A DNA stretch of 64,000 bases, taken from the NCBI GenBank assembly GCA_017499595.2, contig CM039000.1, positions 620,001 through 684,000 of the forward strand, given 5' to 3'. This DNA comes from Psilocybe cubensis (taxonomy: Eukaryota). This document shows positions 1-29,984 of the stretch, piece after piece; within the stretch, counting starts at the first letter, position 1, and every line of letters starts with the position of its first letter. Under the pieces are notes generated by a model. The model was not told the DNA's origin. It ran no database searches and saw only the letters and a program-made list of their open reading frames with translations. Both the position numbers and the translations under genes were made by a program.

Positions 1-1670
1 CAGTTTGAAGAGGTGTAGGGGGGATTTTGTGAGCTGAGGGGCTGGAATAGTATGAAATTTAAGTGATGAGTAGTGAAATTTGAGTGCTAAAACCTTGAGA
101 AAAGTTACACATTTCAAAAAATATTAAGCGCCCGAATAGACATCACACTGAATTGCGTGAACACAGCAATTCCAAAGGCATTCCTCAGGTATCTCTGTAT
201 AGCAGCAGATACTACCATACCCCTAATCACTCACATCGTGCATCCCATGTCAACAATCCCAAAAAATTCAACAAAATTTTCAACTCACGTACATACCAAC
301 ATCCTCCCCCTCCCCCGATTCGCGAATACAGCCCATTTCGAACGCCTCCCTTTCTTCCTGGTCTTTTCCGGCACTAACGGGGACCTGCTCGGCTAGGCTA
401 GGCTGCCGTCACCCGACCTAGAAGGACGGAAATGAAAGCAACCACTGACGGTCTTCAGCTGAATACACAAATGCAATGATACGTACCGTACAATTCTGCG
501 CGTTTTCCGCGTATTCCTGGCATTTAGGGTGTTTTAATACGTTACCTATGGTGTTATGCTGGTGTCTGGGCGTCGGATCGAAGGTTGAAAAGTCGTAAGG
601 TTTGTCTGGTTTCGTATTGCAAGTGTGCTCATGGAGCCGAATGCCCTCATTGTTGGAATAACGGGTTTACATGGTTTTTCAATGTCAGGTAGCCCCTGAG
701 TGATATGATAGATGCTCTTCAGTATGTGAGTATGTCTGCGAGACTTGTTGAGCTCGGAGCACGATGGAAAAGGGTGTACTGCGTATCAACTCCAAATAAG
801 CGCCGAGAACGTGCATATCTACATACAGTGCAAAACAACACTACACACACCTCTAGAAAGATGACAGGGGTAATAATACCTCTCAGCTCTACCCCTCCAA
901 ACCATCCACCCCGCGGAACCATCGAAACAGCTGAACCAATCACATCCGAATCTGCACCTCCTCTCCCAAATCCGCATTCCACCCCATTCCAACCGCATTT
1001 CTTTTCTTCCGGCTTCGGAATCTCACCACCTCGGCTACTCAGAGTCATAACGGCAGATCAGAAGAAGACAGCGGCGTTCAATTTGTCGCTGTGCAGAAGA
1101 CGAGTTTTACGGGTGTTGACTACAGAGCAAGTGTCCGCACTCCGGGAGAGCTAGAATGTGTCGTTTGTGTGATTATGGGTAGAATACGTATGGGTGGTGA
1201 ATTGAATGTACGTACTGGTTTCCCCGAGTCGTGAAGCATTTGAAAATTGTGGAAGATTTGGTGCTAAAGTTTTGTTATTCGTCGTTCAGGCAATTTTGAG
1301 GAAATGGAGTGTATCATGAATCCAGTACTTGTATTGTCCTGGTTTGCGTCTTCAAGCATTGTAAATCTTTATTCTTTATTGAGTTGAATATAATTCTCTC
1401 TTGAGCGCAATGCATCGACATCAGCTCAAACAAACAAATGTACGAAATCATATTTCACAATACAACACACCCACCCAAAGTTTCACTCACTGCAAACGGA
1501 GAAACCACATCCAATCTACAATCTCGACACACACGGACGATCGGACCACAACTCGCGTAACCCAAATCCGAACCCGCACTAACAAGCGACACCGAAAAAA
1601 AAAAAGAATCTGTATATTTCATTATTCGGTCTACTTACGACATGTAACAGGCGTACTAGTAACAGCCCCA

Positions 1671-3937
1671 CGCGGGTATATAAAGACCACGCACCTTGCT
1701 GGCCTTTCTTCATCCCCTCACCGCCTACTCTCCTCTGCCTCTTCAGCTCTCCTCTTCTTTTCTCTTCGGGCTTGGATGGCGCGTTCTGGCAGACGGTGAG
1801 CCTTCTAGTTCGTTCTCGACGGCGCTGACGTTGTGCACTATATAGGCATTGGTGAGTGATATTGACACGACGCCGAGGCGATTCTGACGCGTTTCTCATA
1901 GGCCCGCGCACCACGATGAAAACACCCCTCCTAACCTTGCCCGTAAAGGTGAGTTGCACCCACCCAACGATGCGCTGCTACTCACTTTGCTTCTCGCTGC
2001 ACAGAAAAGTAAGGATTTCCGTGAGTCGGGGCCCCTATGACACGCAGAGCGCTGACAACGCACCTTGACAGAATGGCCTCTCGATCCATCCACCTGACGG
2101 CGTGGGCTGGTTGATACCGTGAAGGTTGCTGGAAAGGTCCTAGACGGTGTGGACACGATAACGACGGTAAGTAGTAGGGCAATAACTAACAGATGCTTTA
2201 CTGACCCACCTTGAAATTAGATTCCCCGCCCGCCTCTGTCACTGCAAGTTGGATCCATTGGACTATGAGGGGACATAACATGCCCCCCAAATCCCGCTCC
2301 ACGGTGAGTGTCGAGAGCGACTGAAAGTGCTTGCTGATTAATCCGACGCTTGCTGGGGTAGACGACCCTACGCGGGTATAAAGACCACGGGTGTTGCTGG
2401 CATTCTTCATCTTTGGGCTTGGATGACGTGTTCGGGCAGACGGTGAGCTTTGTAGTCGACAGCGCTGACGTTGAGCACACCAGAGCCACCGTTTGAGGCG
2501 ACGGTGAGTAACATGCACACGATGCCAATGTGATTCTGACGCATTCCTCGTAGAAGTGCTATAGGTGCGTTGGTCACCGCAGAACGCTGACAACATACCT
2601 CGACAGAACACCACCTAGCCTGTCCCGCTCTGCCCAGACCAGCCAACACCGCTTCTCGCTACACAGACAAGGCATTGCCTACAGAATTTCTGTGAGTCGG
2701 GGCCCCTGATACGTAGAAAGCTGACGAAATACCTTGACAGAATGTCTTCTTGATCCATCCCGCTCCTCTCCCTGGCATAACGATTGACGGCGTGAAAAAA
2801 AAGAAGTTTAGATGCGTAACGAACTGCAGAGTACTGACCGTGCCGATTACTCCATCCCACACTCTCCTTGTATCCTTTCCCTCTCCGCATTGCCCCATAC
2901 CACCAATGACCGCGCGCAGCGACACTGTCTTGACGGCCGTCCAGAATGCATGCAGCTGAGGGGAGAGAGGTAAGCACAATCCCTCGCGGTCAAAAGAATT
3001 GTCAACTTACTGACCGGTGATACAAGCTGTTGAAAATTGACATGGCCTGCCCACACCATCGATGACCTGCGCTGTGTGCTGGATAGCGCGCAGTGACGCT
3101 GTCTTGACGGCCGCCCAGAATGCACACAGCTGAGGGAAAGCGGTAAGCACGGTCCCTTGAGGTTGAAAGAGTTGTCTACTGACCTGTGACACAAATCGAC
3201 CCCCTAGGTCCATGGATAGCGAGCAAAGACTCTTGACCGCAAGGTAAGCCGTCGATATAATAACCCAACCAACCTATTGACGCACCAATTGACCTCTAGT
3301 CGGGCACGACTGTATGCGCGAGCCTTGTTCTTTGAGGCGCAAGGAACCTTGGGTGTTGGTTAAAGGTATGCCCGCTCAGTTTGTCTGCGAAACTGTCTTG
3401 AATGGCGGGCTGAATGCTGCATGCACTGTGGCTTGACGGGGGTGGAAAGACTCTGCAAGGGTGCTGTCACTGGCTTGGGCATCCATCGCTTGTCCCATGA
3501 CGGCGGCGTGTCGACGTTGGGATCAACGTTGTTTAGTGATGAGTCTGCGTGCTGCCACATTCCCCTATACGGACATGCGGCCTCAAGCTGAGATCCAACA
3601 ACTGAGAAAGTCAAATATAAAAAGACGGACAATAACGTACCTCAGTTTCCCCTAGATGCTCACAAATATCAAGGTAGGCGAAGATCGGGGTGTGTGAGTG
3701 AGAAGACGAAGCGGGTAATATAGGTGCTGTGGGGATGAGGCGGAGAGTGCAACATGTGTCGCCTCCTTCATCTTCCAACGGAAAGGACTTGAGCGCAAGG
3801 TGCACGGCGTGACGGTGGTCAAGGAGCTCATCAAAAACGAAGGCCGACTGCCTTCTTCAAGGGGCTGACGCCAAAGGTATGCCAGTGTCCTACTTAGTTG
3901 CAATTCGCCGCATGCACCGCATCGACACAACGTCTAG
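1671..3937 (+). other. Intron-dense transcription unit without a long ORF (spliced ncRNA, small-peptide gene or decayed gene), copy 1
   Basis: TATA-like GTATATAAAG at ~1676, then GT..AG introns, most with a CTGAC/CTAAC-type branch point, at 1796-1845, 1852-1901, 1949-2004, 2021-2071, 2167-2220, 2304-2361, 2443-2483, 2504-2553, 2565-2606, 2692-2740, 2970-3026, 3143-3207, 3244-3299; weaker candidates with donors at 3366, 3674 and 3877. Confidence 0.6.
3791..3876 (+). pseudogene. Isolated exon fragment resembling the C-terminal part of mitochondrial GTP/GDP carrier GGC1 (frameshifted)
   Basis: ERKVHGVTVVKELIKNEG/TAFFKGLTPK followed by donor GTATGC; resembles the KNEG.TAFFKGLTPK motif I recall for fungal Ggc1. 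One base is missing after GAAGGC. Confidence 0.7.
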
Positions 3938-4639
3938 TGATTACTTGCTAAAACAGGTATACATACATCTCGTAGTGTAGAGTATGATTCAGGAGCACAT
4001 GCACAGCTGGTGGGGATAGATAGGGTAGGTAGGTTACTATAGGTGTAGTAGTAGTATGTCGGCTGTACACACATGAAAAAAGGTATAAGTGTTAACGTGA
4101 ATGTGAATCTGGGAAAACAAGGTCATAAAGATGGGAGAAAATTAAATATAGGAAATGTGCGGTCGGGTGTGCGTGCACACTATGCAGCAGAGGAGAACAC
4201 AACAGGCAGAAGGTAGAGGTGGATGATAACGAGGTGAACATGCCGAAGAAGAAGAAAAAGAGGAGAACAATGCAGAGGAGGGAAAATCGAGAACGAAATT
4301 GAAGGAAGACGAAACGAGAATCAAATCAGAACGGCTCGAAATCCAAAATCCAGTTCCGATTCCAATAGTTTTCTACAACAACTCTACTCTACAAAGATCT
4401 TCTACTTTTACAAATTCGTCTTCGACACGTCAACGCGTCGTCGACGATCACCCGCGTACCGCGCCACCTGCTCTGCAGTGGTCACTCGTCCTCGCACGCA
4501 CGCGTGCAAGTGCACAAATCAAGCACGACCGGTGAGTCTTTCTACTACATCAAAACAAAAAAAAGCAGAAACGGGGGAAAGAAATAGAAAACAAAAGGAG
4601 AAAGCGGGAACTGGACTGGACGATATACACGAGGGGCTT

Positions 4640-4660
4640 GGTGGTGGTGGTGGTGGTGGT
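4640..4660. repeat. (GGT)7 microsatellite; (GGT)6 in haplotype B
   Basis: Read directly; compare 15363-15380. Confidence 0.9.
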
Positions 4661-4917
4661 GGCAACAACAGACAGCATCGAGCGCCAGGCGGTCTAGGGA
4701 TGGACAGAAGGGATCCTCCGAGCATGCATGCACGCGCGTGTGCTCCCCTCCCTCTCATCCTCCGAGGTGTGATGTTGGCCCGCAAAAAGTGAATAGGTGC
4801 GTATGTGGGTGGAAATCAACTCCGGGTATCGGTTACTGAACTAGATGGGAAGGGGGGGAGGAGACTTGGACAGACATGTATGGTATGCAGGGAGGCACGA
4901 CGGAAGAAGGAGGGCGC

Positions 4918-6711
4918 TCAGAGTGAGAACCACTGCCTCTTCGCGTGAAGCCTCCTGTGCGCGGTGGTTGCAGCTACTTTCACCTGTGGCTCGGGCTCGG
5001 GCGATTTCTTGACGAGCACGCCCTCCTCCGGGGAGGGAAGCAAAGCGCGTCTCCTGCGCCTGCTCGAGCGCTTCTGGCAAGACGGGGCGGGGTTGCCGTT
5101 GTCGTTGCTGGTAGAAACAGAAGCAGCGGATGCAGAAGAAGCGGAGGCAGAGGCAGAGGAAGAAGCGCCTGCGGCGAGGTTGGCGGGGGCGGGGCTTGCA
5201 CCGGTGTTCCCACCTGAGTTTGCGTTGTTCGAGCCTGAGCCGTTGTTTGAGTTGGGTTTGTTCGAGCCCGAGTTGTTGTTGTTGGAGCCAGAATTGTTGG
5301 AACCGGAGTTGCCTGCGGGAGCACTCGGAGCGCCGGCAAAGATATCGTTCTGCGCGCCTGAAAAGAAGAATCGCAAAAAAACGCCAGGTCAGCCACTTAC
5401 AATCCGAAATAAAAAAAAAATAATCATTGAAACCAACCATCAGCGAAACCCAGCTTGGCATTGTATGCTGGAGACTTGAAGCTGCCTGAAAGGTCGTATC
5501 CACTGACAGCGATGTTGTTGCCCTCGTTCTGGTTCCAGTAAATCATCTGCTTCGAGCCCTTGACGCAGGCACCTGGGTTGCCCTCGCACCACACGGGTGG
5601 CTGTGGGGGTGCAATGGGCGTAGTGCTCTTCGCGCCGGTGACTTTGCACTTGAATGGCTGGTGGTACATGTTCGGCTGGCCGCAGCCGTTCGGGACCCAT
5701 CCCCACTGTGGAAAGAGTTAGACGAAAAATGTGAAGTTTGAATAGAAGTCGGCTTACAGCGCAGATGCAGCCTCCTTCAGGGCAGGCGGGCAAGTTGGCC
5801 GGGACATCGTAGCTGATAACGCGCTTCCAGGGTGTGCTGTGGGGGATTTTATTGATAAGCGTCATTGATTTATTTGCAAGGAATGAAAACCACTCACTTA
5901 TAACGAACAGTGAACACTGCAAGGTTCTGGGGAGTTACTGCCTTGATGTCAGACTAGAAAGTATTTGCAAAGTGAGCGCTAGATATGATTTTGAACGAGA
6001 GTTGGGGACTTGCGTTGTACGAGATTGCGAATGCGGTTCCGGCCGCCATAGACTGATTCTGGGCATGCACTGCACAAAAATGAATCAGCAAAAACGCCAA
6101 GAAACGAGGGCCGCTCACTGTTTGGGGACGTGATGCATGAAGGGACATTCTGTGAGGCACAGTGGGTTAATTAATCAGTTGCTAGGAATATGGGAAAGAC
6201 ACGCACATAGTCCTCGGGGTATGTCGCACCGTCTGGCCATTCTGAGGTGTCGCGCCCGTTGTACGCCAGCGTGGTCTTTGCGCGGTTGGAGGCGATCTCG
6301 ACGGTGAAGCTTCCACCAGCAGGACTGAAGTCGGGGTTTAGACGACGGAAATCAAAAATACAGGTGTGTTGGGACTCACAGCTCGAGGAAGTCCCCGTCT
6401 GCAGGAGGATATAGGTCACACTAGGTTAACAATTGCGTTGTTGATATGATGGACTGCAGAGTGTTGTTTAATGAGATGAACATAGCACAACGGCAAAACA
6501 CGTACACCACCAATCCTTAAAGTTGAGCTGGACAATCGCGTAGGAATTCAAGTCTTGCGCAGCTTGCGGACCCTATAGAAAGAATGTAGATTCTTCAGCG
6601 GTTCTGAACATTTTGAAATGAGGACTACATTCCTTTGTGGAAAGCTGCAAGATGGGCGTTGGCGCCGCTTAGCCACAAGGCCGCTGTGAGAAGGGTTGCA
6701 GCTCGAAACAT
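4918..6711 (-). pseudogene. AA14-like lytic polysaccharide monooxygenase, copy 1 (haplotype A), probable pseudogene
   Basis: Signal peptide MFRAATLLTAALWLSGANA followed directly by His (HLAAFHKGM). Manually spliced exons give ...DFLELPAGGSFTVEIASNRA...MHAQNQSMAAGTAFAISYNSDI...TPWKR...[36 protein letters not shown]...[13 protein letters not shown]...GFADGAQNDIF, which I recognise as AA14-type motifs, then an N/S/G/A-rich tail. TAG at 6625-6627, 12-bp exon deletion, intron 3 reduced to 16 nt. Confidence 0.85.
5954..6013 (-). other. GC-AG intron (60 nt) in the LPMO gene, present in all copies
   Basis: TAC AAC|GCAAGT...TTTCTAG|TCT GAC ATC gives in-frame AISYN-SDIKAV. Confidence 0.8.
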
Positions 6712-6839
6712 TGACTTGAACTTGTTGAGCCGCGTTGAAAAAGAGTGTGGTTGGCCTTGAAGAAAGTTTGGCGTAAACCGAGCGGGATGGTACAGGAAGG
6801 AGTCGTACAAGTCGTTGGAGTGAAAAGTTGACAGTCTAG

Positions 6840-6845
6840 TTTATA
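6840..6845 (-). promoter_or_regulatory. Candidate TATA box of the LPMO gene
   Basis: TATAAA on the minus strand about 130 bp upstream of the ATG at 6711; retained in both haplotypes. Confidence 0.4.
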
Positions 6846-7369
6846 AGCTAATCAGGAAGTGAGCGGATGGATGATACCCTGCGTTCATCATGGAAGAAGG
6901 GGAGGCAGACCACCTAAATTGATAGATTACTATTTATGATGTGCAGATGTTGCTTTTTCTGGCGAGTTTTTTCTCGGTAAAATGTCGAGATCTATTAATA
7001 GGCCAAAAAAAGAGCGTAGTCCATGCATTCCAACACCTTCAATTTATCGTACAAGCAGAGGTTAGCCCCGCCCGAAGGCCAGAATGGGGCGTAACCGGTC
7101 TATCTACAGGGAAATCACTCACCGGCGAAAATCTGTCAAGGTCACGGGACAAACATCCTACCACAACGACGGGTCATACGTGTTCTTCCCGGGTTGACAA
7201 TAGGCCCGCCTACGTCGTGTTAGAGGGTTCAAGGGCCCCGCGCGGGTCCACTTCAGAGGTGTCCAACAATAATCGCTAGAGCATACCCCTGCGTCAAAGC
7301 TCCCCGGACGCCATTATGTTGTGTCAGAGCATAGCGGGGTGACTCGAGGGTGCTGAACGGAAATTAGGG

Positions 7370-8090
7370 TGAGTCCTGCTCGCCGGGTCAAAGCAACGAT
7401 GTGTCGTGTTTGTCTAACGCCATACTGGTGCTGGGTGAGGAGTAGGCTGTATCCAGTTCGGCAGACAGCAATACATCTCCAGTTGGGTGGGTGCATAGCA
7501 CTGCCTCCAAAGAGGCTGGACAACATTGGATGAAGGAGGAGATGCGCGTCTTGCCGGACGGCAATACATGGATAAGAGTTGGGTAGATCCTACTCGCCGG
7601 AAGACGATATGCTGCATTGGGGCATATGTAGTCGAGACGAGCAAAGGGGAGAATTGAGCTCGCCGGACGGCGATACATAGCGTCAGCGCATAGTGGGTTA
7701 AATCCTGCTTGCCGCAAGACGATGCATCGCGTTGGAGCATCCGCTGGTTGCACATAGAGTCAAAACAAGCAAAGAGGAGGGCCCAGCTCGCCGGACGGCA
7801 ATACATAGCGTCAGAGCGTAGTTGGACAAGGAGTGTGGTGGATCCTGCTCGCCGGAAGACGACGCATTGCGTTGAAGCATCCGTTGGTCGCACATGGAGT
7901 CGATACGAGTAAAGGGGAGGGTCCAGCTCGCCGGACAGCGATATATCGTGTCGGGGCATTATTTGGTGTCCTTGGGACAAGCAAAGCGGGTGGGTTTAGC
8001 TCGCCGGACGACGATATGTTGCCTCAGAGCATCTTTAGGCATGCTGGCACTAGCGAGTCGCGGGGAAGAAATACATTGCGTCGGAGTAAT
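7370..8090. repeat. Degenerate direct-repeat field built on CTCGCCGGA(A/C)G(A/G)C(G/A)AT
   Basis: Motif variants near 7379, 7456, 7550, 7593, 7659, 7708, 7787, 7848, 7927 and 8000, spaced about 45-95 bp apart. Confidence 0.85.
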
Positions 8091-8446
8091 CTGGGTTATG
8101 GAAAACAGTTAAGCACATGTCTAGCACTCTGAACAGCAATACACTTACCAATACCATGGCCCTTTATTCTCAAGGCGAGTATCGATGCATAGCTTCAAGG
8201 CGAAACTGATACAAAGTCAGTACATGTTTTCAACACTATATCCAATGTCACATACCTCTTGGTTACCGCGCATTCCTTTACCAGCATTCGTCGGACACCC
8301 GAATCTCAAATTTGATTCTGCACACATTGTCAGTACTATATAAGTCTTTGAAGGTATAAAACTTACAAGGTTGAAACCAGATTACGTAGCCCGAGAGCCC
8401 AAGGTTGATACTAGAGCATGGCATAGGCAGAGTGCGATGCCAAGGA

Positions 8447-8570
8447 GGGTGCATGACGATGAGGAACGTCCACGACGAGGAGGGTGCACAACAATGGGTG
8501 CATGACGAGGAGGGTACGCAAAAAGAAAGGTGTGCAACGAGGGAGGTAACGACGAGGACGGGTACACGTC
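8447..8570. repeat. Short degenerate repeats (GACGAGGAGGGT(G/A)C-like)
   Basis: GGGTGCATGACGA occurs twice and GACGAGGA three times within about 120 bp. Confidence 0.6.
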
Positions 8571-9200
8571 GACGTACATCCAGCATTAGGGCATAATGCA
8601 CGGCTGGGTTTCATGAAATTCCAGTCCCTCTTTATACTCTTTTTTTCCAAGTTTTCAAGGTCACGTTGTAATTTTGCTGGCACATCACCTCATTTCTGTA
8701 GCTTCATCAATTAGACTAGTCTTCGCTTCACTCCAACTTCGTTTACGAAGTGTAAAATTTATTTTATGGAATGCCATAATTTGACTCTTAGGAGTCCGGG
8801 AATATGAGTGATTCCACTTCCCTGTTTGCTCTCCAACTTGAATTCCAAGGCAGAAGATCCTGCTACAAATGTCCGAAAACTGTCCACATCCACAAATTAC
8901 ATTCCATGCTCGAGCACTGGAACAGCCGCTTTCCATCCTCGTAAACTCGTATCATTGTGCTAGACCCGGAGATCCACTTACGCGTAGAAGGCCGTAGTTT
9001 TGTTGAACGTTGCTTCACAACATTACGTGCATTTACATCCAACATAACGTCCTGTACCGCTGGCACAACACGCGCATAATGCACATTCAGCATTCAGGTA
9101 TCCTGAATGCGACGCGACACATCTCATCCCGAGCAAAAAGACCCTGAACGCGAGCACCCCTAAACGCGAATTGGTTTCGGATAACAAAGTCAGCTGAACT

Positions 9201-9226
9201 TGACGCGACGCGTCGGACGCGTGTCA
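9201..9226. promoter_or_regulatory. ACGCGT-rich palindrome (TGAC-GCG-ACGCGTC-G-GACGCGT-GTCA), possible promoter element
   Basis: Perfect 7-bp inverted repeat containing two ACGCGT (MCB-like) sites, with more CGCG motifs at 9110-9170; core unchanged in all six units. Confidence 0.4.
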
Positions 9227-12184
9227 GGGCAGAGCTGAGCTGTTTAATCTAATGACGCACATTTTCGTAACAAGCGCTGCTTCCTTTGAAACCCGCTTTT
9301 GGAATAGTCGCGCTAGCGCCCGATCCGTGTCATCGCGATTCCGGATTCACGATCCTTGATTCAAGCCTAATTTTAAATCTGGGCAGACCAACATCCAGGC
9401 CCACATTTACATAAATGCTTGCTGGAGAGCTTTCTACTACGTCTGGGGGTCATTTTTGATGTAGCGACTGTAATTGAAGGTGTTTTCATGGGAGTTAAAT
9501 ATAACTCTGGCTTGTTTTCAATGTAAATATAACTAAATCTCGAGGTATACTCTACAGACATTGTTTGTGGGCATACCGGTAAGTCAGGTTGCATCCGCAT
9601 ACTCGCTGACTATCTGTAGCACTGTATAGATTTGATATACGCGCTCAGATAAATATTCAGTACACTCTGCGGCCGAAAATCCGTCTCGGAAACGGATACT
9701 TAAATAACTCGTGCAGGGGTTCCTTGAGCCCCTGTTCCGCTCTTGAACGCAAATTTCAAGTCTATGTCAGGATTTTAGCTCAATGAGGCTAGTGCCTCGG
9801 CTGCTCGGAGCCATCACAATGTTCAGCGGAGACTCTGAAGTTTCGGAGGATTGAGAAAAATACAGTGACGTGGCATTCGAATTCACGGTAGTTTGACCTC
9901 CATAAGGCGTCTGTGAGTTGAATAGTGTACCATAGAGTGTGAATAGAAGACAATATGATAAAATCCACTTGTAACTAACAGAATAAATTGAAATCTCTTG
10001 TGAATTTTCAAGTACTCGTCCTAAAATCGACTGCAAGCAATTTCATCCGCAGAATATAGATTACAACAAGCCCACAGGCAGGGTATGGTGTACCAGTACT
10101 GATATATTACCTAGAATAGTCCAAAATCACTCACAGGAAGCAATGACATTTGTTTGACATATAAACCAATGACATTCTCCTCCTCCCCCGATACGTCAAT
10201 TTACGTCGTTTCAGTCGTTTCCATTCCATCCGTACCTTATTATAGATTAGCCTAGCACCCTTCGGCTCGCGAATAACGTTGTGAATCGGTCCTCTAGAGC
10301 CCAGAAGAACGTAGTTGATTGGATACAGTGCAGGCGGGTAATAACAACGTGGCATGCGTACCGCGGCCGTTTGCTGCATACTCGCCATTTGAGGCGGTTT
10401 GGCGGATGCGTATAGGTGTAGTAATGCGTGGTTGAAGAGATGATGCGCCGTGGTGCAAGGAAAAATCGACAATTTGGAGTTATTCACGTCGAGCCGTGAA
10501 ATGGTGTAAATCGCGCATTCCCGCAGTTTGAAGAGGTGTAGGGGGGATTTTGTGAGCTGAGGGGTTGGAATAGTATGAAATTTAAGTGATGAGTAGTGAA
10601 ATTTGAGTGCTGAAACCTTGAGAAAAGTTACACATTTCAAAAAATATTAAGCGCCCGAATAGACATCACACTGAATTGCGTGAATACAGCAATTCCAAAG
10701 GCATTCCTCAGGTATCTCTGTATAGCAGCAGAACCCCTAATCACTCACATCGTGCATCCCATGTCAACAATCCCAAAAAATTCAACAAAATTTTCAACTC
10801 ACGTACATACCAACATCCTCCCCCTCCCCCGATTCGCGAATACAGCCCATTTCGAACGCCTCCCTTTCTTCCTGGTCTTTTCCGGCACTAACGGGGACCT
10901 GCTCGGCTAGGCTAGGCTGCCGTCACCCGACCTAGAAGGACGGAAATGAAAGCAACCACTGACGGTCTTCAGCTGAATACACAAATGCAATGATACGTAC
11001 CGTACAATTCTGCGCGTTTTCCGCGTATTCCTGGCATTTAGGGTGTTTTAATACGTTACCTATGGTGTTATGCTGGTGTCTGGGCGTCGGATCGAAGGTT
11101 GAAAAGTCGTAAGGTTTGTCTGGTTTCGTATTGCAAGTGTGCTCATGGAGCCGAATGCCCTCATTGTTGGAATAACGGGTTTACATGGTTTTTCAATGTC
11201 AGGTAGCCCCTGAGTGATATGATAGATGCTCTTCAGTATGTGAGTATGTCTGCGAGACTTGTTGAGCTCGGAGCACGATGGAAAAGGGTGTACTGCGTAT
11301 CAACTCCAAATAAGCGCCGAGAACGTGCATATCTACATACAGTGCAAAACAACACTACACACACCTCTAGAAAGATGACAGGGGTAATAATACCTCTCAG
11401 CTCTACCCCTCCAAACCATCCACCCCGCGGAACCATCGAAACAGCTGAACCAATCACATCCGAATCTGCACCTCCTCTCCCAAATCCGCATTCCACCCCA
11501 TTCCAACCGCATTTCTTTTCTTCCGGCTTCGGAATCTCACCACCTCGGCTACTCAGAGTCATAACGGCAGATCAGAAGAAGACAGCGGCGTTCAATTTGT
11601 CGCTGTGCAGAAGACGAGTTTTACGGGTGTTGACTACAGAGCAAGTGTCCGCACTCCGGGAGAGCTAGAATGTGTCGTTTGTGTGATTATGGGTAGAATA
11701 CGTATGGGTGGTGAATTGAATGTACGTACTGGTTTCCCCGAGTCGTGAAGCATTTGAAAATTGTGGAAGATTTGGTGCTAAAGTTTTGTTATTCGTCGTT
11801 CAGGCAATTTTGAGGAAATGGAGTGTATCATGAATCCAGTACTTGTATTGTCCTGGTTTGCGTCTTCAAGCATTGTAAATCTTTATTCTTTATTGAGTTG
11901 AATATAATTCTCTCTTGAGCGCAATGCATCGACATCAGCTCAAACAAACAAATGTACGAAATCATATTTCACAATACAACACACCCACCCAAAGTTTCAC
12001 TCACTGCAAACGGAGAAACCACATCCAATCTACAATCTCGACACACACGGACGATCGGACCACAACTCGCGTAACCCAAATCCGAACCCGCACTAACAAG
12101 CGACACCGAAAAAAAAAAAGAATCTGTATATTTCATTATTCGGTCTACTTACGACATGTAACAGGCGTACTAGTAACAGCCCCA

Positions 12185-14469
12185 CGCGGGTATATAAAGA
12201 CCACGCACCTTGCTGGCCTTTCTTCATCCCCTCACCGCCTACTCTCCTCTGCCTCTTCAGCTCTCCTCTTCTTTTCTCTTCGGGCTTGGATGGCGCGTTC
12301 TGGCAGACGGTGAGCCTTCTAGTTCGTTCTCGACGGCGCTGACGTTGTGCACTATATAGGCATTGGTGAGTGATATTGACACGACGCCGAGGCGATTCTG
12401 ACGCGTTTCTCATAGGCCCGCGCACCACGATGAAAACACCCCTCCTAACCTTGCCCGTAAAGGTGAGTTGCACCCACCCAACGATGCGCTGCTACTCACT
12501 TTGCTTCTCGCTGCACAGAAAAGTAAGGATTTCCGTGAGTCGGGGCCCCTATGACACGCAGAGCGCTGACAACGCACCTTGACAGAATGGCCTCTCGATC
12601 CATCCACCTGACGGCGTGGGCTGGTTGATACCGTGAAGGTTGCTGGAAAGGTCCTAGACGGTGTGGACACGATAACGACGGTAAGTAGCAGGGCAATAAC
12701 TAACATATGGTTTACTGACCCACCTTGAAATTAGATTCCCCGCCCGCCTCTGTCACTGCAAGTTGGATCCACCGGACTATGAGGGGACATAACATGCCCC
12801 CCCAAATCCCGCTCCACGGTGAGTGTTGAGAGCGACTGAAAGTGCTTGCTTGCTGGGATAGACGACCCTACGCGGGTATAAAGACCGCGGATGTTGCTGG
12901 CATTCTTCATCTTTGGGCTTGGATGACGTGTTCGGGCAGACAGTGAGCTTTGTAGTCGACAGCGCTGACGTTGAGCACACCAGAGCCACCGTTTGAGGCG
13001 ACGGTGAGTAACATGCACACGATGCCAATGTGATTCTGACGCATTCCTCGTAGAAGTGCTATAGGTGCGTTGGTCACCGCAGAACGCTGACAACATACCT
13101 CGACAGAACACCACCTAGCCTGTCCCGCTCTGCCCAGACCAGCCAACACCGCTTCTCGCTACACAGACAAGGCATTGCCTACAGAATTTCTGTGAGTCGG
13201 GGCCCCTGATACGTAGAAAGCTGACAACATACCTTGACAGAATGTCTTCTTGATCCATCCCGCTCCTCTCCCTGGTATAACGATTGACGGCGTGAAAAAA
13301 AAGAAGTTTATTCCGGTACCGTACCTACAATGCGTAACGAGCAGCAGAGTACTGAGCTTGCCAATTACTCCATCCCACACTCTCCTTGTATCCTCTCCCC
13401 TGCTTTGGCCTCTGTCAGCCACTCTCTACATTGCCCACACCATCGATGGCCTGCACCGTGCGCTGGATAGCGTGTAGTGACGCTCTTTTGACGGCCGTTC
13501 AGAATGCATGCAGCTGAAGGGAGAGCGGTAAGCACAATCCCTTGCGGTCAAAAGAATTGTCAACTTACTGACCGGTGATACAAGCTGTTGAAAATTGACA
13601 TGGTGTCTATCCTCTCCCCAGCACTGGCCTCTATCAACTGCTCTCCACATTGCCCACTCCATCGATGGCCTGACGCTGTCTTGACGGCCGCCCAGAATGC
13701 ACACAGCTGAGGGAAAGCGGTAAGCACGATGCCTCGCAGTTGAAAGTGTCTACTGACCTGTGACGCAAGCTATTGAGATCGACCCCCTAGGTCCGTGGAT
13801 AGCGAGCAAAGACTCTTGACCGCAAGGTAAGCCGTCGATATAATAACCCAACCAACCTATTGACGCACCAATTGACTTCTAGTCGGGCACGACTGTATGC
13901 GCGAGCCTTGTTGTTTGAGGCGCAAGGAACCTTGGGTGTTGGTTAAAGGTATGCCCGCTCAGTTTGTCTGCGAAACCGTCTTGAATGGCAGGCTGAATGC
14001 TGCATGCACTGTGGCTTGACGGGGGTGGAAAGACTCTGCAAGGGTGCTGTCACCGGCTTGGGCATCCATCGCTTGTCCCATGACGGCGGCGTGTCGACGT
14101 TGGGATCAACGTTATTCCCCTATACGGACATCCGGCCTCAAGCTGAGATCCAACAACTGAGAAAGTCAAATATAAAAAGACGGATAGATGCTCAGAAATA
14201 TCAAGGTAGGCGAAGATCGGGGTGTGTGAGTGAGAAGACGAAGCGGGTAATATAGGTGCTGTGGGGATGAGGCGGAGAGTGCAACATGTGTCGCCTCCTT
14301 CATCTTCCAACGGAAAGGACTTGAGCGCAAGGTGCACGGCGTGACGGTGGTCAAGGAGCTCATCAAAAACGAAGGCCGACTGCCTTCTTCAAGGGGCTGA
14401 CGCCAAAGGTATGCCAGTGTCCTACTTAGTTGCAATTCGCATCACGCACCGCATCGACACAACGTCTAG
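12185..14469 (+). other. Intron-dense unit, copy 2
   Basis: Homologous to 1671-3937, with B-type indels. Confidence 0.55.
14323..14408 (+). pseudogene. GGC1-like exon fragment, copy 2 (frameshifted)
   Basis: Same as 3791-3876. Confidence 0.65.
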
Positions 14470-14586: not shown

Positions 14587-14803
14587 TGTACATACATACA
14601 TACATACATACACTGCATGTATATGTACACCAATAGACAATGGAGGTATGACAGTAATAAGATAGCCTGTGAAGGGCGTAGAGTGTGATATGATGGGGGT
14701 AGTCGTACACGCCCGGTATGGATGGATGGACGTGTATGGGAATATCATGTAAGGGAAGGATAGGCGTGGGTTGGGAGGCAATAGAAGTCTAGGAGGAGAA
14801 AAA
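14587..14803. other. ~215-bp segment with a (TACA)n microsatellite, present only in haplotype B units
   Basis: Unit 1 reads GGCTGTACACACATGAAAAAAGGTATAAG at 4061-4090; units 2-4 carry the extra block there. Confidence 0.85.
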
Positions 14804-17495: not shown

Positions 17496-18444
17496 TGACT
17501 TCAACTTATTGAGCCGCGTTGAAAAAGAGTGTGGTTGGCCTTGAAGAAAGTTTGGCGTAAACCGAGCGGGATAGTACAAGCGTAGGTACAGGAAGGGGGA
17601 AGGAGTCGTCTGTCCAAGTCGTTGGAGTGAAAAGTTGACAGTCTAGTTTATAAGCTAATCAGGAAGTGAGCGGATGGATGATACCCTGCGTTCATCATGG
17701 AAGAAGGGGAGGCAGACCACCTAAATTGATAGATTACTATTTATGATGTGCAGATGTTGCTTTTTCTGGCGAGTTTTTACTCGGTAAAATGTCGAGATCT
17801 ATTAATAGGCCAAAAAAAGAGCGTAGTCCATGCATTCCAACACCTTCAATTTATCGTACAAGCAGAGGTTAGCCCCGCCCGAAGGCCAGAATGGGGCGTA
17901 ACCGGTCTATCTACAGGGAAATCACTCACCGGGTCTCAGTAGCGAAAATCTGTCAAGGTCACGGGACAAACATCCTACCACAACGACGGGTCATACGTGT
18001 TCTTCCCGGGTTGACAATAGGCCTGCCTCACTGATCAGAGGCCCCGGATGAAGTGCGCGGGTCCACTTCAGAGGTGTCCAACAATAATCGCTAGAGCATA
18101 CCCCTGTGTTAAAGCTCCCCGGACGCCATTATGTTGTGTCAGAGCATAGCGGGCCGAACGGAAATTAGGGTGAGTCCTGCTCGCCGGGTCAAAGCAACGA
18201 TGTGTCGTGTTTGTCTAACGCCATACTGGGGTGACTCGAGGGTGCTGGGTGAGGAGTAGGCTGTATCCAGTTCGGCAGACAGCAATACATCTCCAGTTGG
18301 GTGGGTGCATAGCACTGCCTCCAAAGAGGCTGGACAACATTGGATGAAGGAGGAGATGCGCGTCTTGCCGGACGGCAATACATGGATAAGAGTTGGGTAG
18401 ATCCTACTCGCCGGAAGACGATATGCTGCATTGGGGCATATGTA

Positions 18445-18728
18445 GTCGAGACGAGCAAAGGGGAGGGTCCAGCTCTCCGGAAGGCGATACGTTGCGTTGG
18501 GGCATACGTTGGTTGCACATGAAGTCGAGACGAGCAAAGGGGAGGGTCCAGCTCTCCGGAAGGCGATACGTTGCGTTGGGGCATACGTTGGTTGCACATG
18601 AAGTCGAGACGAGCAAAGGGGAGGGTCCAGCTCGCCGGAAGGCGATACGTTGCGTTAGGGCATACGTTGGTTGCACATGAAGTCGAGACGAGCAAAGGGG
18701 AGGGTCCAGCTCGCCGGAAGGCGATACA
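18445..18728. repeat. 79-bp minisatellite, 3 full + 1 partial copies
   Basis: GTCGAGACGAGCAAAGGGGAGGGTCCAGCTC...GCACATGAA starts at 18445, 18524, 18603, 18682. Confidence 0.97.
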
Positions 18729-21700
18729 TGGCGTCGGCGCATAGCTGGATACGTAGTGGGTTAAATCCTGCTTGCCGGAAGACGATGCTTCGCGTTGGAG
18801 CATCCGCTGGTTGCACATAGAGTCAAAACAAGCAAAGAGGAGGGCCCAGCTCGCCGGACGGCAATACATAGCGTCGGAGCGTAGTTGGACAAGGAGTGTG
18901 GTGGATCCTGCTCGCCGGAAGACGTCGCATTGCGTTGAAGCATCCGTTGGTTGCACATGGAGTCCATACAAGTAAAGGGGAGGGTCCAGCTCGCCGGACA
19001 GCGATATATCGTGTCGGGGCATTATTTGGTGGTACAGGACTCCTTGGGACAAGCAAAGCGGGTGGGTTTAGCTCGCCGGACGACGATATGTTGCCTCAGA
19101 GCATCTTTAGGCATGCTGGCACTAGCGAATCGCGGGGAAGAAATACATTGCGTCGGAGTAATCTGAGTTATGGAAAACAGTTAAGCACATGTCTAGCACT
19201 CTGAACAGCAATACACTTACCAATACCACAGCCCTTTATTCTCAAGGCGAGTATCGATGCATAGCTTCAAGGCGAAACTGATACAAAGTCAGTACATGTT
19301 TTCAACACTATATCCAATGTCACATACCTCTTGGTTACCGCGCATTCCTTTACCAGCATTCGTCGGACACCCGAATCTCAAATTTGATTCTGCACACATT
19401 GTCAGTACTTATAAGTCTTTGAAGCGTATAAAACTTACAAGGTTGAAACCAGAATACATCGCCCGAGAGACCTAGGTTGATACTAGAGCATGGCATAGAC
19501 AGAGTGCGATGCCAAGGAGGGTGCATGACGATGAGGAACATCCACGACGAGGAGGGTGCACAACAATGGGTGCATGACGAGGAGGGTACGCAAAAAGAAA
19601 GGTGTGCAACGAGGGAGGTAACGACGAGGACGGGTACACGTCGACGTACATCCAGCATTAGGGCATAATGCACGGCTGGTGTTCATGAAATTCCAGTCCC
19701 TCTTTATACTCTTTTTTTACCAAGTTTTCAAGGTCACGTTGTATTTTCGCTGGCACATCACCTCATTTCTGTAGCTTCATCAATTACACTAGTCTTCGCT
19801 TCACTCCAACTTCGTTTACGAAGTGTAAAATTTATTTATTGGAATGCCATAATTTGACTCTTAGGAGTCCGGGAATATGAGTGATTCCACTTCCCTGTTG
19901 CTCTCCGACTTGAATTCCAAGGCAGAAGATCCTGCTACAAATGTCCGAAAACTGTCCACATCCACAAATTACATTCCATGCTCGAGCACTGGAACAGCCG
20001 CTTTCCATCCTCGTAAACTCGTATTATTGTGCTAGACCCGGAGATCCACTTACGCGTAGAAGGCCGTAGTTTTGTTGAACGTTGCTTCACAACATTACGT
20101 GCATTTACATCCAACATAACGTCCTGTACCGCTGGCACAACACGCGCACCCGGCATGCAGGTATTCTGAATTCGACGCGACGCGTCTCATCCACAACGCC
20201 AGAAAGCAAAAGACCCTGAACGCGAACGCCCCTAAACGCGAATTGGTTTCGGATAACAAAGTCAGCTGAACTTGACGCGACGCGTCGGACGCGTGTCAGG
20301 GCAGAGCTGAGCTGTTTAATCTAATGACGCACATTTTCGTAACAAGCGCTGCTTCCTTTGAAACCCGCTTTTGGAATAGTCGCGCTAGCGCCCGATCCGT
20401 GTCATCGCGATTCCGGATTCACGATCCTCGATTCAAGCCTAAATTTAAATCTGGGCAGACCAACATCCAGGCCCACATTTACATAAATGCTTGCTGGAGA
20501 GCTTTCTACTATGTCTGGGGGTCATTTTTGATGTAGCGACTGTAATTGAAGGTGTTTTCATGGGAGTTAAATGTAACTCTGGCTTGTTTTCAATGTAAAT
20601 ATAACTAAATCTCAAGGTATACTCTACAGAAATTGTTTGTGGGAATACCGGTAAGTCAGGTTGCATCTGCATACTCGCTGACTATCTGTAGCACTGTAGA
20701 GGTTTGATATACGTGCTTATATTAACATTCATTTCACTCTGCGGCCAAAAATCCGTCTCTGAACGGATATTTAAATAACTCATGCAGGGGTCACCCGAGC
20801 CCCTGTCCCGCTCTTGAATGTAAATTTAAAGTCTAACTGCAGGCCTATGACATGCTTTACCTCAACAAGGCTAGTGCCTCGGCTGCTCGGAGCCATCACA
20901 ATGTTCAGCGGAGACTCTGAAGTTTCGGAGGATTGAGAAAAATACAATGACGTGGCATTCAAATTCACAGTAGTTTGACCTCCATAAGACGTCTGTGAGC
21001 TGAATAGTGTACCATAGAGTGTGAATAGAAGACAATATGATAAAATCCACTTGTAACTAACAGAATAAATTGAAATCTCTTGTGAATTTTCAAGTACTCG
21101 TCCTAAAATCGACTGCACGCAATTTCATCCGCAGAATATAGATTACAACAAGCCCACAGGCAGGGTATGGTGTACCAGTACTGATATATTACCTAGAATA
21201 GTCCAAAATCACTCACAGGAAGCAATGGCATTTGTTTGACATATAAACCAATGACATTCTCCTCCTCCCCCGATACGTCAATTTACGTCGTTTTAGTCGT
21301 TTCCATTCTATCCGTACCTTATTATAGATTAGCCTAGCACCCTTTGGCTCGCGAATAACGTTGTGAATCGGTGCTCTAGAGCCCAGAAGAACGTAGTTGA
21401 TTGGATACAGTGCAGGCGGGTAATAACAACGTGTCATGCGTACCGCGGCTGTTTGCTGCATACTCGCCATTTGAGGCGGTTTGGCGGATGCGTATAGATG
21501 TAGTGATGCGTGGTTGAAGAGATGATGCGCCGTGGTGCAAGGAAAAGTCGGCAATTTGGAGTTGTTCACGTCAAGCCGTGAAATGGTGTAAATCGCGCAT
21601 TCCCGCAGTTTGAAGAGGTGTAGGGGGGATTTTGTGAGCTGAGGGGCTGGAATAGTATGAAATTTAAGTGATGAGTAGTGAAATTTGAGTGCTAAAACCT

Positions 21701-23275: not shown

Positions 23276-25567
23276 CGCGGGTATATAAAGACCACGCACC
23301 TTGCTGGCCTTTCTTCATCCCCTCACCGCCTACTCTCCTCTGCCTCTTCAGCTCTCCTCTTCTTTTCTCTTCGGGCTTGGATGGCGCGTTCTGGCAGACG
23401 GTGAGCCTTCTAGTTCGTTCTCGACGGCGCTGACGTTGTGCACTATATAGGCATTGGTGAGTGATATTGACACGACGCCGAGGCGATTCTGACGCGTTTC
23501 TCATAGGCCCGCGCACCACGATGAAAACACCCCTCCTAACCTTGCCCGTAAAGGTGAGTTGCACCCACCCAACGATGCGCTGCTACTCACTTTGCTTCTC
23601 GCTGCACAGAAAAGTAAGGATTTCCGTGAGTCGGGGCCCCTATGACACGCAGAGCGCTGACAACGCACCTTGACAGAATGGCCTCTCGATCCATCCACCT
23701 GACGACTGACGGCGTGGGCTGGTTGATACCGTGAAGGTTGCTGGAAAGGTCCTAGACGGTGTGGACACGATAACGACGGTAAGTAGCAGGGCAATAACTA
23801 ACATATGGTTTACTGACCCACCTTGAAATTAGATTCCCCGCCCGCCTCTGTCACTGCAAGTTGGATCCACCGGACTATGAGGGGACATAACATGCCCCCC
23901 CAAATCCCGCTCCACGGTGAGTGTTGAGAGCGACTGAAAGTGCTTGCTTGCTGGGATAGACGACCCTACGCGGGTATAAAGACCGCGGATGTTGCTGGCA
24001 TTCTTCATCTTTGGGCTTGGATGACGTGTTCGGGCAGACAGTGAGCTTTGTAGTCGACAGCGCTGACGTTGAGCACACCAGAGCCACCGTTTGAGGCGAC
24101 GGTGAGTAACATGCACACGATGCCAATGTGATTCTGACGCATTCCTCGTAGAAGTGCTATAGGTGCGTTGGTCACCGCAGAACGCTGACAACATACCTCG
24201 ACAGAACACCACCTAGCCTGTCCCGCTCTGCCCAGACCAGCCAACACCGCTTCTCGCTACACAGACAAGGCATTGCCTACAGAATTTCTGTGAGTCGGGG
24301 CCCCTGATACGTAGAAAGCTGACAACATACCTTGACAGAATGTCTTCTTGATCCATCCCGCTCCTCTCCCTGGTATAACGATTGACGGCGTGAAAAAAAA
24401 GAAGTTTATTCCGGTACCGTACCTACAATGCGTAACGAGCAGCAGAGTACTGAGCTTGCCAATTACTCCATCCCACACTCTCCTTGTATCCTCTCCCCTG
24501 CTTTGGCCTCTGTCAGCCACTCTCTACATTGCCCACACCATCGATGGCCTGCACCGTGCGCTGGATAGCGTGTAGTGACGCTCTTTTGACGGCCGTTCAG
24601 AATGCATGCAGCTGAAGGGAGAGCGGTAAGCACAATCCCTTGCGGTCAAAAGAATTGTCAACTTACTGACCGGTGATACAAGCTGTTGAAAATTGACATG
24701 GTGTCTATCCTCTCCCCAGCACTGGCCTCTATCAACTGCTCTCCACATTGCCCACTCCATCGATGGCCTGACGCTGTCTTGACGGCCGCCCAGAATGCAC
24801 ACAGCTGAGGGAAAGCGGTAAGCACGATGCCTCGCAGTTGAAAGTGTCTACTGACCTGTGACGCAAGCTATTGAGATCGACCCCCTAGGTCCGTGGATAG
24901 CGAGCAAAGACTCTTGACCGCAAGGTAAGCCGTCGATATAATAACCCAACCAACCTATTGACGCACCAATTGACTTCTAGTCGGGCACGACTGTATGCGC
25001 GAGCCTTGTTGTTTGAGGCGCAAGGAACCTTGGGTGTTGGTTAAAGGTATGCCCGCTCAGTTTGTCTGCGAAACCGTCTTGAATGGCAGGCTGAATGCTG
25101 CATGCACTGTGGCTTGACGGGGGTGGAAAGACTCTGCAAGGGTGCTGTCACCGGCTTGGGCATCCATCGCTTGTCCCATGACGGCGGCGTGTCGACGTTG
25201 GGATCAACGTTATTCCCCTATACGGACATCCGGCCTCAAGCTGAGATCCAACAACTGAGAAAGTCAAATATAAAAAGACGGATAGATGCTCAGAAATATC
25301 AAGGTAGGCGAAGATCGGGGTGTGTGAGTGAGAAGACGAAGCGGGTAATATAGGTGCTGTGGGGATGAGGCGGAGAGTGCAACATGTGTCGCCTCCTTCA
25401 TCTTCCAACGGAAAGGACTTGAGCGCAAGGTGCACGGCGTGACGGTGGTCAAGGAGCTCATCAAAAACGAAGGCCGACTGCCTTCTTCAAGGGGCTGACG
25501 CCAAAGGTATGCCAGTGTCCTACTTAGTTGCAATTCGCATCACGCACCGCATCGACACAACGTCTAG
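23276..25567 (+). other. Intron-dense unit, copy 3
   Basis: Homologous to copy 2, plus a 7-bp duplication near 23700. Confidence 0.55.
25421..25506 (+). pseudogene. GGC1-like exon fragment, copy 3 (frameshifted)
   Basis: Same as 3791-3876. Confidence 0.65.
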
Positions 25568-29542: not shown

Positions 29543-29984
29543 GTCGAGACGAGCAAAGGGGAGGGTCCAGCTCTCCGGAAGGCGATACGTTGCGTTGGGG
29601 CATACGTTGGTTGCACATGAAGTCGAGACGAGCAAAGGGGAGGGTCCAGCTCTCCGGAAGGCGATACGTTGCGTTGGGGCATACGTTGGTTGCACATGAA
29701 GTCGAGACGAGCAAAGGGGAGGGTCCAGCTCGCCGGAAGGCGATACGTTGCGTTAGGGCATACGTTGGTTGCACATGAAGTCGAGACGAGCAAAGGGGAG
29801 GGTCCAGCTCTCCGGAAGGCGATACGTTGCGTTGGGGCATACGTTGGTTGCACATGAAGTCGAGACGAGCAAAGGGGAGGGTCCAGCTCGCCGGAAGGCG
29901 ATACGTTGCGTTAGGGCATACGTTGGTTGCACATGAAGTCGAGACGAGCAAAGGGGAGGGTCCAGCTCGCCGGAAGGCGATACA
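29543..29984. repeat. 79-bp minisatellite, 5 full + 1 partial copies
   Basis: Starts at 29543, 29622, 29701, 29780, 29859, 29938. Confidence 0.97.

Follow-up and report, generated by a model that had tools for sequence, protein, structure and literature searches.

In some multi-exon long non-coding RNAs (lncRNAs), among them lincRNAs of animals, constraint falls on splice-related motifs and not on exon sequence. Introner-like elements of fungi are near-identical introns spread over unrelated genes, and Helitron or Pack-type transposons capture gene fragments. Here we compare these systems, together with unprocessed pseudogenes and snoRNA host genes, with an intron-dense unit at positions 1671–3937 (+ strand) of a 64-kb window, the whole stretch of Psilocybe cubensis DNA that was analysed. 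The unit is convergent with the gene of a wood-degrading enzyme, an AA14 LPMO (4075–6894, − strand), whose transcript reaches at least position 4075, and a preliminary description had proposed that it might be a spliced lncRNA, a micro-peptide gene or a chimeric element-borne transcript. The account that we favour, believing and doubting it in equal measure, is that the stretch is non-coding gene wreckage hitch-hiking with amplification of the LPMO gene. In the portions of the literature available to our search, there is no report of an AA14 array that carries a unit of this kind, nor of intron-dense non-coding units in Agaricomycetes.

All 13 short introns described earlier in the unit were reproduced as intron-like segments of 41–65 nt with a GTRNGY-like start and an AG end, as were the microexons of 6, 16, 20 and 11 nt between segments. 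Six segments on the + strand (1796–1845, 1852–1901, 1949–2004, 2021–2071, 2167–2220 and 2304–2361) fall in a first module, A; four (2443–2483, 2504–2553, 2565–2606 and 2692–2740) in a second, A′; and three (2970–3026, 3143–3207 and 3244–3299) in a series of B modules. A TATA-like box on the same strand, read directly at 1677–1685, is followed by a CT-rich tract and, 91 nt downstream, by the first ATG (1776), from which in-silico splicing yields the 26-aa peptide of the preliminary description, or its 39-aa alternative when a donor at 2009 is used. A degenerate second TATA-like box lies at 2377–2384, within module A′. A strict intron motif (GTRNGH..YTRAY..YAG, no longer than 90 nt) has 12 matches on the unit's + strand versus 2 on its − strand, and 500 dinucleotide shuffles gave a mean of 2.56 matches (sd 1.85) with a maximum of 9. 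Equal density of intron signals is present within the 64-kb window only in five other copies of the unit. The unit's signals are unusually close to consensus, because only three of nine RNA-verified LPMO introns fit the same motif. The unit itself, with an intron every ~115 nt and microexons of 6–20 nt, is more densely interrupted than the neighbouring real genes.

These properties count against gene wreckage, as decaying sequence should look worse than real genes and here the splice signals are nearer consensus than those of the LPMO introns. Near-consensus signals favour, together with the strand asymmetry, a functional, lineage-specific spliced lncRNA gene driven by the TATA-like box and convergent on the LPMO, for which transcription and splicing would matter and exon sequence would not. 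We consider this second reading possible but doubtful; such an RNA could, for instance, act at the LPMO 3′ end as a buffer for convergent transcription, or give what is transcribed from a repeated array a 'gene-like' mark. None of the 14 segments (the 13 above and a further one at 3877–3937, described below) shows a stable fold (z −2.4 to +1.0, with 13 of the 14 within ±1.7), ruling out mirtron-like introns, and no structured small RNA is indicated at 1685–1850 (z −0.07 to −1.25). Searches of positions 1–11500 for known RNA families returned no Rfam match at E ≤ 1 and nothing with ARAGORN. A snoRNA host gene would likewise be a multi-intron unit with no reading frame, but is ruled out by the lack of Rfam matches and by introns of 41–65 nt, too short for a snoRNA.

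The preliminary description had suggested looking for family members. Six units of ~11 kb, arrayed head to tail, make up the window, each with its own copy of the intron-dense unit. The array period is evident from position 1500, which recurs at 12014, 23105, 34361, 45445 and 56091, and a contig of DNA run X3 joins position 10500 to position 1 through 23 letters (window 10501–10523). The array units fall into two types, A and B, a lettering separate from that of the modules: copy 1 (1671–3937), used as the reference, is 99.96% identical to each of the type A copies 5 (45616–47882) and 6 (56262–58528), and copies 2 (12185–14469), 3 (23276–25567) and 4 (34532–36824) belong to type B units, all on the + strand. 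Positions 1500–2093 are identical in all six copies save one base in copy 4, and the tract with no difference between unit types spans 210–2090, including ~1.5 kb upstream of the TATA-like box. This mosaic of divergence fits concerted evolution and not local constraint, and since the array is homogenised, the six copies are not independent evidence of constraint, which removes one possible support for the lncRNA. Elsewhere in the unit, positions 7001–7350 have 3–6 times the contig depth of their surroundings in DNA runs, marking a dispersed repeat.

Within each unit, older duplications account for part of the intron number. Module A (1666–2365, +) contains the TATA-like box, the CT-rich leader, the ATG at 1776 and six intron-like segments, and module A′ (2366–2905, +) is an old tandem duplicate of its first ~430 nt with four such segments; the two are 78% identical over aligned columns, with many indels. 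Three B modules follow on the + strand (B, 2906–3079; B′, 3080–3212; B″, 3213–3299), degenerate tandem repeats of ~130–175 nt that each carry a terminal intron-like segment, and a weak fourth B-like copy at 3380–3450 (+; 77% over 31 nt) carries none. The B modules are the most indel-rich and most divergent part between the two unit types, and both sets of repeats are too diverged to be detected by Tandem Repeats Finder. Segments 1796 and 2443, 1852 and 2504, 2021 and 2692 (and 2565), and 2970 and 3143 are positional paralogues. As the unit was built from old internal duplications (A/A′ and four B modules), the number of introns stands at 13 as described, but only ~8–9 of them are independent. 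The same pattern bears on introner-like elements, which the unit resembles in its families of similar short introns with near-consensus signals. Among the 91 pairs of the 14 segments, only 2 score above the highest shuffle value, each a pair of positional paralogues. Similar copies occur within the 64 kb solely at the same position in each unit or as local duplicates, with none in the LPMO gene, so that the spread over unrelated genes that defines introner-like elements is not seen in the window; the segments also lack a stable fold.

Old duplicates also allow conservation to be compared between splice signals and neighbouring bases. Between A and A′ and between B and B′, splice-signal positions are kept at 62 of 70 versus 317 of 483 other positions when gaps are counted as differences (p 5e-5), and at 61 of 65 versus 318 of 399 when only aligned columns are considered (p 0.005); the reciprocal test is not significant (55/70 versus 324/460, p 0.2). 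In type B units, too, 12 of the 13 segments retain their donor, branch-like motif and acceptor, the exception being segment 2304–2361, whose best branch motif is lost through a 15-nt deletion. Better retention of signal positions speaks for the lncRNA and against wreckage, with the reciprocal result weighing on the other side. In this respect, and in having no conserved frame, the unit resembles multi-exon lncRNAs, in that old duplicates agree more often at donor, branch and acceptor positions than at the surrounding ones; it differs from them in its tiny exons, its introns of 41–65 nt, the absence of any observed splice junction or cross-species conservation, and the amplification of the locus six-fold or more.

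RNA evidence comes from two small runs, X1 and X2; no listed run is recorded as RNA, and these two are taken as such on the grounds that their contigs join the LPMO exons across all nine introns. Two short X2 contigs (119 and 131 nt, depth 12–22) cover 1685–1850 of a variant copy, just behind the TATA-like box, so that a related copy is represented in that run by at least its 5′ end, an observation that supports the lncRNA and sits uneasily with wreckage. Both contigs, which do not give the strand, are unspliced across donor 1796 and intron 1, and one begins at 1685, upstream of any TATA-driven start. Of the joints given for these two runs, for which contigs alone were available, none is a junction at the 14 candidate sites. 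Positions 1851–3756 have no contig in X1 or X2, and run X4, from a relative, has none on 1751–3500 at ≥90% likeness; both are gaps in cover that we do not use as evidence. The proposal of a spliced lncRNA thus gains from the preferential retention of splice-like signals in old duplicates and loses from the unspliced contigs and the missing junctions.

The unit encodes no protein; the preliminary description had already noted the lack of a long ORF. No reading frame is common to its near-identical copies. Copies 3 and 4 have a 7-nt indel in the putative exons, where indels of 1, 18 and 23 nt also separate copies, and these lengths include some that are not multiples of three. An exhaustive search over splice paths, a check that had been proposed, gave a best frame of 238 aa in copy 1 and 93 aa in copy 2, although the two copies are ~98% identical, and eight control stretches gave best frames of 47–250 aa, a range that contains both values. 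Outside the carrier exon described below, Pfam searches found nothing in 20 further + strand open reading frames (ORFs) of the unit and nothing in 10 long ORFs from the remainder of the ~11-kb unit; the LPMO aside, nine other ORFs (six on the − strand) produced a few weak matches, all below curated cut-offs. A frame kept among copies and paralogues, the signature of a coding gene, is therefore absent, and the reading as a long protein is close to refuted. A gene with microexons that makes the 26- or 39-aa product, or the product of some other exon combination, has in its favour an ATG placed after a TATA-like box and CT-rich leader, and exons of the 26-aa frame that are identical in five of six copies. 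Copy 4 has lost that ATG to ATA, and paralogue A′ shows changes at the first positions of codons and departs from A after the seventh codon, a pattern without coding-type conservation. The micro-peptide proposal finds no support in these comparisons, and we regard any protein or micro-peptide gene here as scarcely credible.

The 3′ end of the unit has a recognizable origin. Positions 3751–3937 are a relic of a GGC1-type mitochondrial GTP/GDP-carrier gene, in which the start codon and ~11 codons are joined to codons ~243–273, followed by the gene's own intron. The start (3751–3788, +) consists of the ATG, a 2-nt insertion and codons 2 to ~12; it matches residues 1–14 of the carrier P0003 by tblastn at E 0.23 and the gene start at related locus L012 with 94% identity over 33 nt by blastn and, over 3757–3789, at E 0.0024 by nhmmer. 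The following exon piece (3789–3876, +; residues ~243–273) is 30/34 identical to residues 240–273 of a 299-aa carrier, and nhmmer matches it to seven relatives at E 1e-7 to 7e-15 over 3788–3883/3918. It carries a frameshift (1-nt deletion) in five of the six copies, with the frame intact in copy 4 (36644–36763). The intron-like segment 3877–3937 (+), the fourteenth, occupies the position of the real GGC1 intron after residue 273 in relatives, whose exon boundaries we took from tblastn, and the nhmmer match to L004 extends into it, to 3918. A protein search with the relic retained 69 of 88 candidates at E ≤ 0.001, all 69 with PF00153; the best named full-length matches are annotated in Agaricales as 'Mitochondrial GTP/GDP carrier protein 1'. 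For the 40-aa piece alone, Pfam Mito_carr gives E 6e-4 and 19.9 bits, below the 22.3 cut-off.

Little of the carrier remains, as ~230 internal codons have been deleted, the last exon is lost (residues 274–299 have no match anywhere in the window) and the frame is shifted in most copies, leaving ~120 nt of coding sequence. Two contigs of the RNA runs (953 and 1378 nt) match 3789–3876 only, differing there by 1 mismatch and 1 gap; as their sequence on both sides of this piece does not resemble the window, the parent carrier gene must lie elsewhere and be expressed. Homology to an expressed GGC1-type carrier, a retained intron position, ancestral synteny and disabling lesions are what an unprocessed pseudogene, or the relic of a neighbour gene caught in tandem duplication, would display. 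The unit departs from that model in the small amount of coding sequence left and in its upstream 2.1 kb, with 13 of the 14 segments, for which no parent gene was identified.

Synteny in relatives explains how the carrier piece came to be there. Of 17 related metagenome loci, 7 have an intact GGC1 downstream of the AA14 LPMO gene on the opposite strand, convergent with it, indicating that the relic is in situ and was not captured. This arrangement bears on the idea of mobile-element cargo, in which gene fragments would have been captured by a Helitron-like or Pack-type transposon and the ~11-kb units would be multimers of the element. The unit is indeed a chimeric mosaic, with a promoter-like box followed by part of a cellular gene, the units run head to tail, and the array contains the dispersed repeat noted above. 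But the fragment stands at its ancestral position beside the LPMO gene, so it has not moved; no transposase, Rep/helicase or reverse-transcriptase domain occurs in the 10 long ORFs or the ORFs of the unit; and throughout the 64 kb, modules A and B are confined to their own place within each unit. We judge capture by a mobile element to be very unlikely; of the earlier phrase 'chimeric element-borne transcript', the first word is borne out by the GGC1 piece and the second is not.

Apart from the relic, the unit has no counterpart in relatives. Window positions 1–4100 otherwise show no likeness to the 17 related loci at the DNA or translated level, relatives have no intron-dense cluster upstream of GGC1, and an exact 22-nt pattern from the unit had 0 matches in metagenome contigs. 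The absence of a counterpart in the 17 loci and of an upstream cluster makes the unit lineage-specific, and tells against the lncRNA. A gene upstream of GGC1 in relatives was rejected as the parent of this region: 10 ORFs at L012 contain no Pfam family, 10 ORFs at L003 contain only a sub-threshold MARVEL match, and no coding sequence is conserved among L003, L009 and L012. Descent of the B modules from decayed copies of the GGC1 exon is suggestive at most. Comparisons with that exon gave tblastn E values of 2.6–7.2 and local-alignment z scores of 0.5, −0.8, 3.5 and 1.7, with nothing from nhmmer or profile hmmsearch; scores summed over seven relatives gave z 1.9, −0.5, 2.2 and 1.8 (controls 0.9 to −0.8), and nhmmer against L003 gave E 0.79. 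No parent gene of modules A and B was found in the 64-kb window or the 17 related loci, which, with an intron density above that of neighbouring genes, is a further point against wreckage.

Gene wreckage nevertheless offers a coherent history. In every unit of the AA14 LPMO array, the wreckage would fill the place that GGC1 holds in related fungi, its last ~190 nt being the remains of a GGC1 copy while expression of a working GGC1 comes from another locus. From the TATA-like box onwards, the 2.1 kb ahead of the relic arose as intron-bearing segments were duplicated in tandem, locally and repeatedly: duplication of A to A′ (~700 nt) and repetition of B four times (~130–175 nt) multiplied an original ~8–9 intron-like segments, giving 13. 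Were the TATA-like box to fire, it would yield a multi-intron RNA with only short, unconserved frames, a likely target of nonsense-mediated decay. We infer that the unit itself lacks any sequence-specific function and is carried by amplification of a highly expressed LPMO gene. Another course from the same origin, which we think unlikely, is that a young lineage-specific non-coding gene arose from the wrecked LPMO neighbour and local duplications and was kept for its dense, consensus-strength introns and not for any sequence; splicing during transcription, together with termination, in convergence with each LPMO gene would insulate the highly expressed copies of this near-identical array from read-through, antisense RNA and repeat-directed silencing.

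The direct value of the finding is modest: an amplified gene for a carbohydrate-active enzyme drags along its neighbour and guts it. Local duplication can make a stretch look richer in introns than real genes are, which may mislead gene predictors as well as readers who have only the sequence. If the lncRNA reading is true, the unit would give fungi a compact example of splice signals that persist with neither coding sequence nor exons under constraint, and in which splicing of a non-coding unit is linked to expression of a tandemly amplified gene.

The intron-dense unit at 1671–3937 (+), which recurs as copies 1–6, is most likely non-coding gene wreckage, a reading we hold at middling confidence and in which a gutted copy of the mitochondrial GTP/GDP carrier gene GGC1 is combined with intron-bearing segments that were duplicated locally and for which no parent gene was found. 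Six units of 10.5–11.3 kb follow one another head to tail across the window, in an array that extends past both window ends, with one AA14 LPMO gene per array unit on the − strand (Pfam LPMO_AA14, E = 3.4e-28); a contig from DNA run X3 joins 10500 to position 1 through 23 letters identical to window 10501–10523. Type A copies 1 (1671–3937), 5 (45616–47882) and 6 (56262–58528) share 99.96% identity across the unit. They differ from type B copies 2 (12185–14469), 3 (23276–25567) and 4 (34532–36824) as a mosaic, with zero differences between about 210 and 2090, divergence of a few per cent at 2094–2800 and a substitution and indel hot spot at 2800–3200, as expected under gene conversion or unequal crossing-over. 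A tandem repeat of about 79 nt (at about 7300–8100, 18436–19017, 29534–30273 and 40791–41372), whose copy number varies by unit, explains much of why array units differ in length. DNA runs X3 and X4 cover 7001–7350, and the corresponding stretch of every array unit, at 3–6 times the contig depth seen elsewhere in the unit, and contig ends lie loose at 7049 and 7107; the pattern points to a short dispersed repeat sitting upstream of the LPMO gene.

The intron-dense unit begins with a TATA-like box (1677–1685, +) with a CT-rich tract behind it, and the 13 introns and microexons of the preliminary description were reproduced. Intron-like segments of 41–65 nt at 1796–3299, with a GTRNGY-like donor, a CTRAY-like branch motif and an AG end, are separated by exons that can be as small as 6, 16, 20 and 11 nt; a fourteenth segment lies at 3877–3937. 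Within 1671–3937, a strict intron motif has 12 occurrences on the + strand and two on the − strand, compared with a mean of 2.56 (sd 1.85, maximum 9) in 500 dinucleotide-preserving shuffles. Because the strict motif fits just three of the nine LPMO introns verified by contigs from X1 and X2, the runs treated as RNA, the signals of the unit are unusually close to consensus.

These signals enclose no detectable coding capacity, as had been suspected. In silico splicing from the ATG at 1776 returns the 26-aa peptide reported earlier and a donor at 2009 the 39-aa alternative, and the fully spliced 1.5-kb product carries 17–29 stops per frame, in agreement with the stops noted in later exons. An exhaustive search over candidate introns, proposed at the outset, yielded frames of up to 238 aa in copy 1 but no more than 93 aa in copy 2, within the 47–250 aa of eight control stretches. 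Indels of 7, 1, 18 and 23 nt separate the putative exons of near-identical copies. Pfam matched none of 20 + strand ORFs of the unit and gave only weak sub-threshold matches among the remaining ORFs that were scanned, six of which lie on the − strand. A micro-peptide gene, as once considered, or a protein gene is very improbable, given these discordant best frames, an ATA in copy 4 where other copies have the first ATG, and no sign of coding-type conservation in the internal paralogue A′. Likewise, no Rfam family (E ≤ 1) or tRNA was found over 1–11500, nor any stable fold in the 5′ piece that RNA-run contigs cover or in the 14 intron-like segments, so that neither a structured small RNA nor a snoRNA host gene nor mirtron-like introns have support.

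Internal duplication accounts for part of the intron density. Module A (1666–2365) is followed by A′ (2366–2905), which carries a second version of its TATA-like box, ‘first exon’ and first introns (78% identity in aligned columns, with numerous indels), and then by four B modules of about 130–175 nt starting at 2906, 3080, 3213 and, weakly, 3380. Positional paralogues among the segments are 1796/2443, 1852/2504, 2021/2692 (+2565) and 2970/3143, and the 2 of 91 pairs of intron interiors that exceed the shuffle maximum are both positional paralogues; with segments related through duplication, only about 8–9 of the 13 are independent. The main rival, possible but less probable than wreckage, is a functional spliced lncRNA, with the splice signals as the maintained feature. 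It would better explain signals of consensus strength; type B units retain the signals of 12 of the 13 segments, and A′ and B′ conserve the signal positions defined in A and B more often than other positions (62/70 versus 317/483 with gaps as differences, P = 5e-5; 61/65 versus 318/399 in aligned columns only, P = 0.005). In the reciprocal test the difference is not significant (55/70 versus 324/460, P = 0.2), and the six homogenised copies give no independent evidence for constraint. Only two RNA-run contigs lie on the unit proper, both short, from X2 and of a variant copy (1685–1765, continuing at 1810, and 1732–1833); both pass donor 1796 unspliced and enter the first intron-like segment; one of them starts only 8 nt past the start of the TATA-like box. 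In 17 related loci, metagenome contigs found with an LPMO exon as query, there is no counterpart of the unit at the DNA or translated level, and relatives lack an intron-dense cluster upstream of GGC1.

The wreckage reading draws on the 3′ end of the unit. X1 and X2 yielded contigs of 953 and 1378 nt whose sole match to the window is at 3789–3876 (1 mismatch, 1 gap), with unlike sequence on either side; a working GGC1 is expressed from another locus. In copy 4, one extra C restores the frame of this carrier piece, giving 40 aa that match Pfam Mito_carr at E = 6e-4 (19.9 bits, under the 22.3 cut-off) and 69 database proteins, PF00153 being present in 69/69. The best named full-length matches are Agaricales ‘Mitochondrial GTP/GDP carrier protein 1’, and 30 of 34 residues are identical to residues 240–273 of a 299-aa carrier, of which residues 274–299 match nowhere in the window. 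Adjoining upstream is a GGC1 start relic at 3751–3788, where a 2-nt insertion separates the ATG from the next ~11 codons of the gene (tblastn E = 0.23; nhmmer E = 0.0024; 94% over 33 nt to the gene start at locus L012, with the starts of relatives also read). Downstream, the fourteenth segment continues the relic: relatives have a GGC1 intron directly after residue 273, in the same place, and the match at locus L004 extends into the segment. At 7 of the 17 loci (L003, L004, L005, L006, L009, L012 and L015), the region downstream of the LPMO carries a GGC1-type gene on the other strand (tblastn E = 4e-27 to 1e-151); in the remaining ten, no more than 3.2 kb is available downstream. This convergent AA14 LPMO/GGC1 pair is conserved across several related metagenome-sampled fungi, with a spacing of about 0.7–3 kb between LPMO exon match and GGC1 3′ end. 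Synteny and intron position together indicate that the carrier piece was left behind when the LPMO's ancestral neighbour was gutted, and was not captured from elsewhere. Element-borne capture of a gene fragment is accordingly unlikely, as the relic is in syntenic position and the ORFs scanned in the array unit contain no transposon protein domain; of the ‘chimeric element-borne transcript’ first suggested, the GGC1 piece bears out the chimera, and the element is not supported. A tempting likeness to the GGC1 exon in the B modules, upstream of the relic, could not be established.

LPMO contigs from X1 and X2, with nine introns of the gene spliced out, extend to at least 4075, and LPMO and unit are therefore convergent, as originally described. 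Contig depth is high in both RNA runs, and the 3′ untranslated region is long (about 840 nt to 4075, if 4918–5388 is the last coding exon). Past 4075 the contig continues for 186 letters into an insertion of about 200 nt (14598–14797) present in type B units only, so the LPMO copies expressed in those runs are type-B-like. Differences between RNA contigs and the window at 4075–6894 are strand-biased (G>A 15 versus C>T 3 in X1; 12 versus 2 in X2), corresponding to C>T on the LPMO sense strand, and are symmetric in DNA runs X3 and X4. Between-copy or between-strain differences are more likely than editing, because several sites vary in the DNA runs too.

Literature comparisons cover introner-like elements, lincRNAs constrained at splice motifs, gene capture by Helitrons in mushrooms and the AA14 family. 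The unit belongs to known kinds, either pseudogene relic or lncRNA candidate; as gene wreckage, it would have been carried along by amplification of the highly expressed AA14 LPMO.
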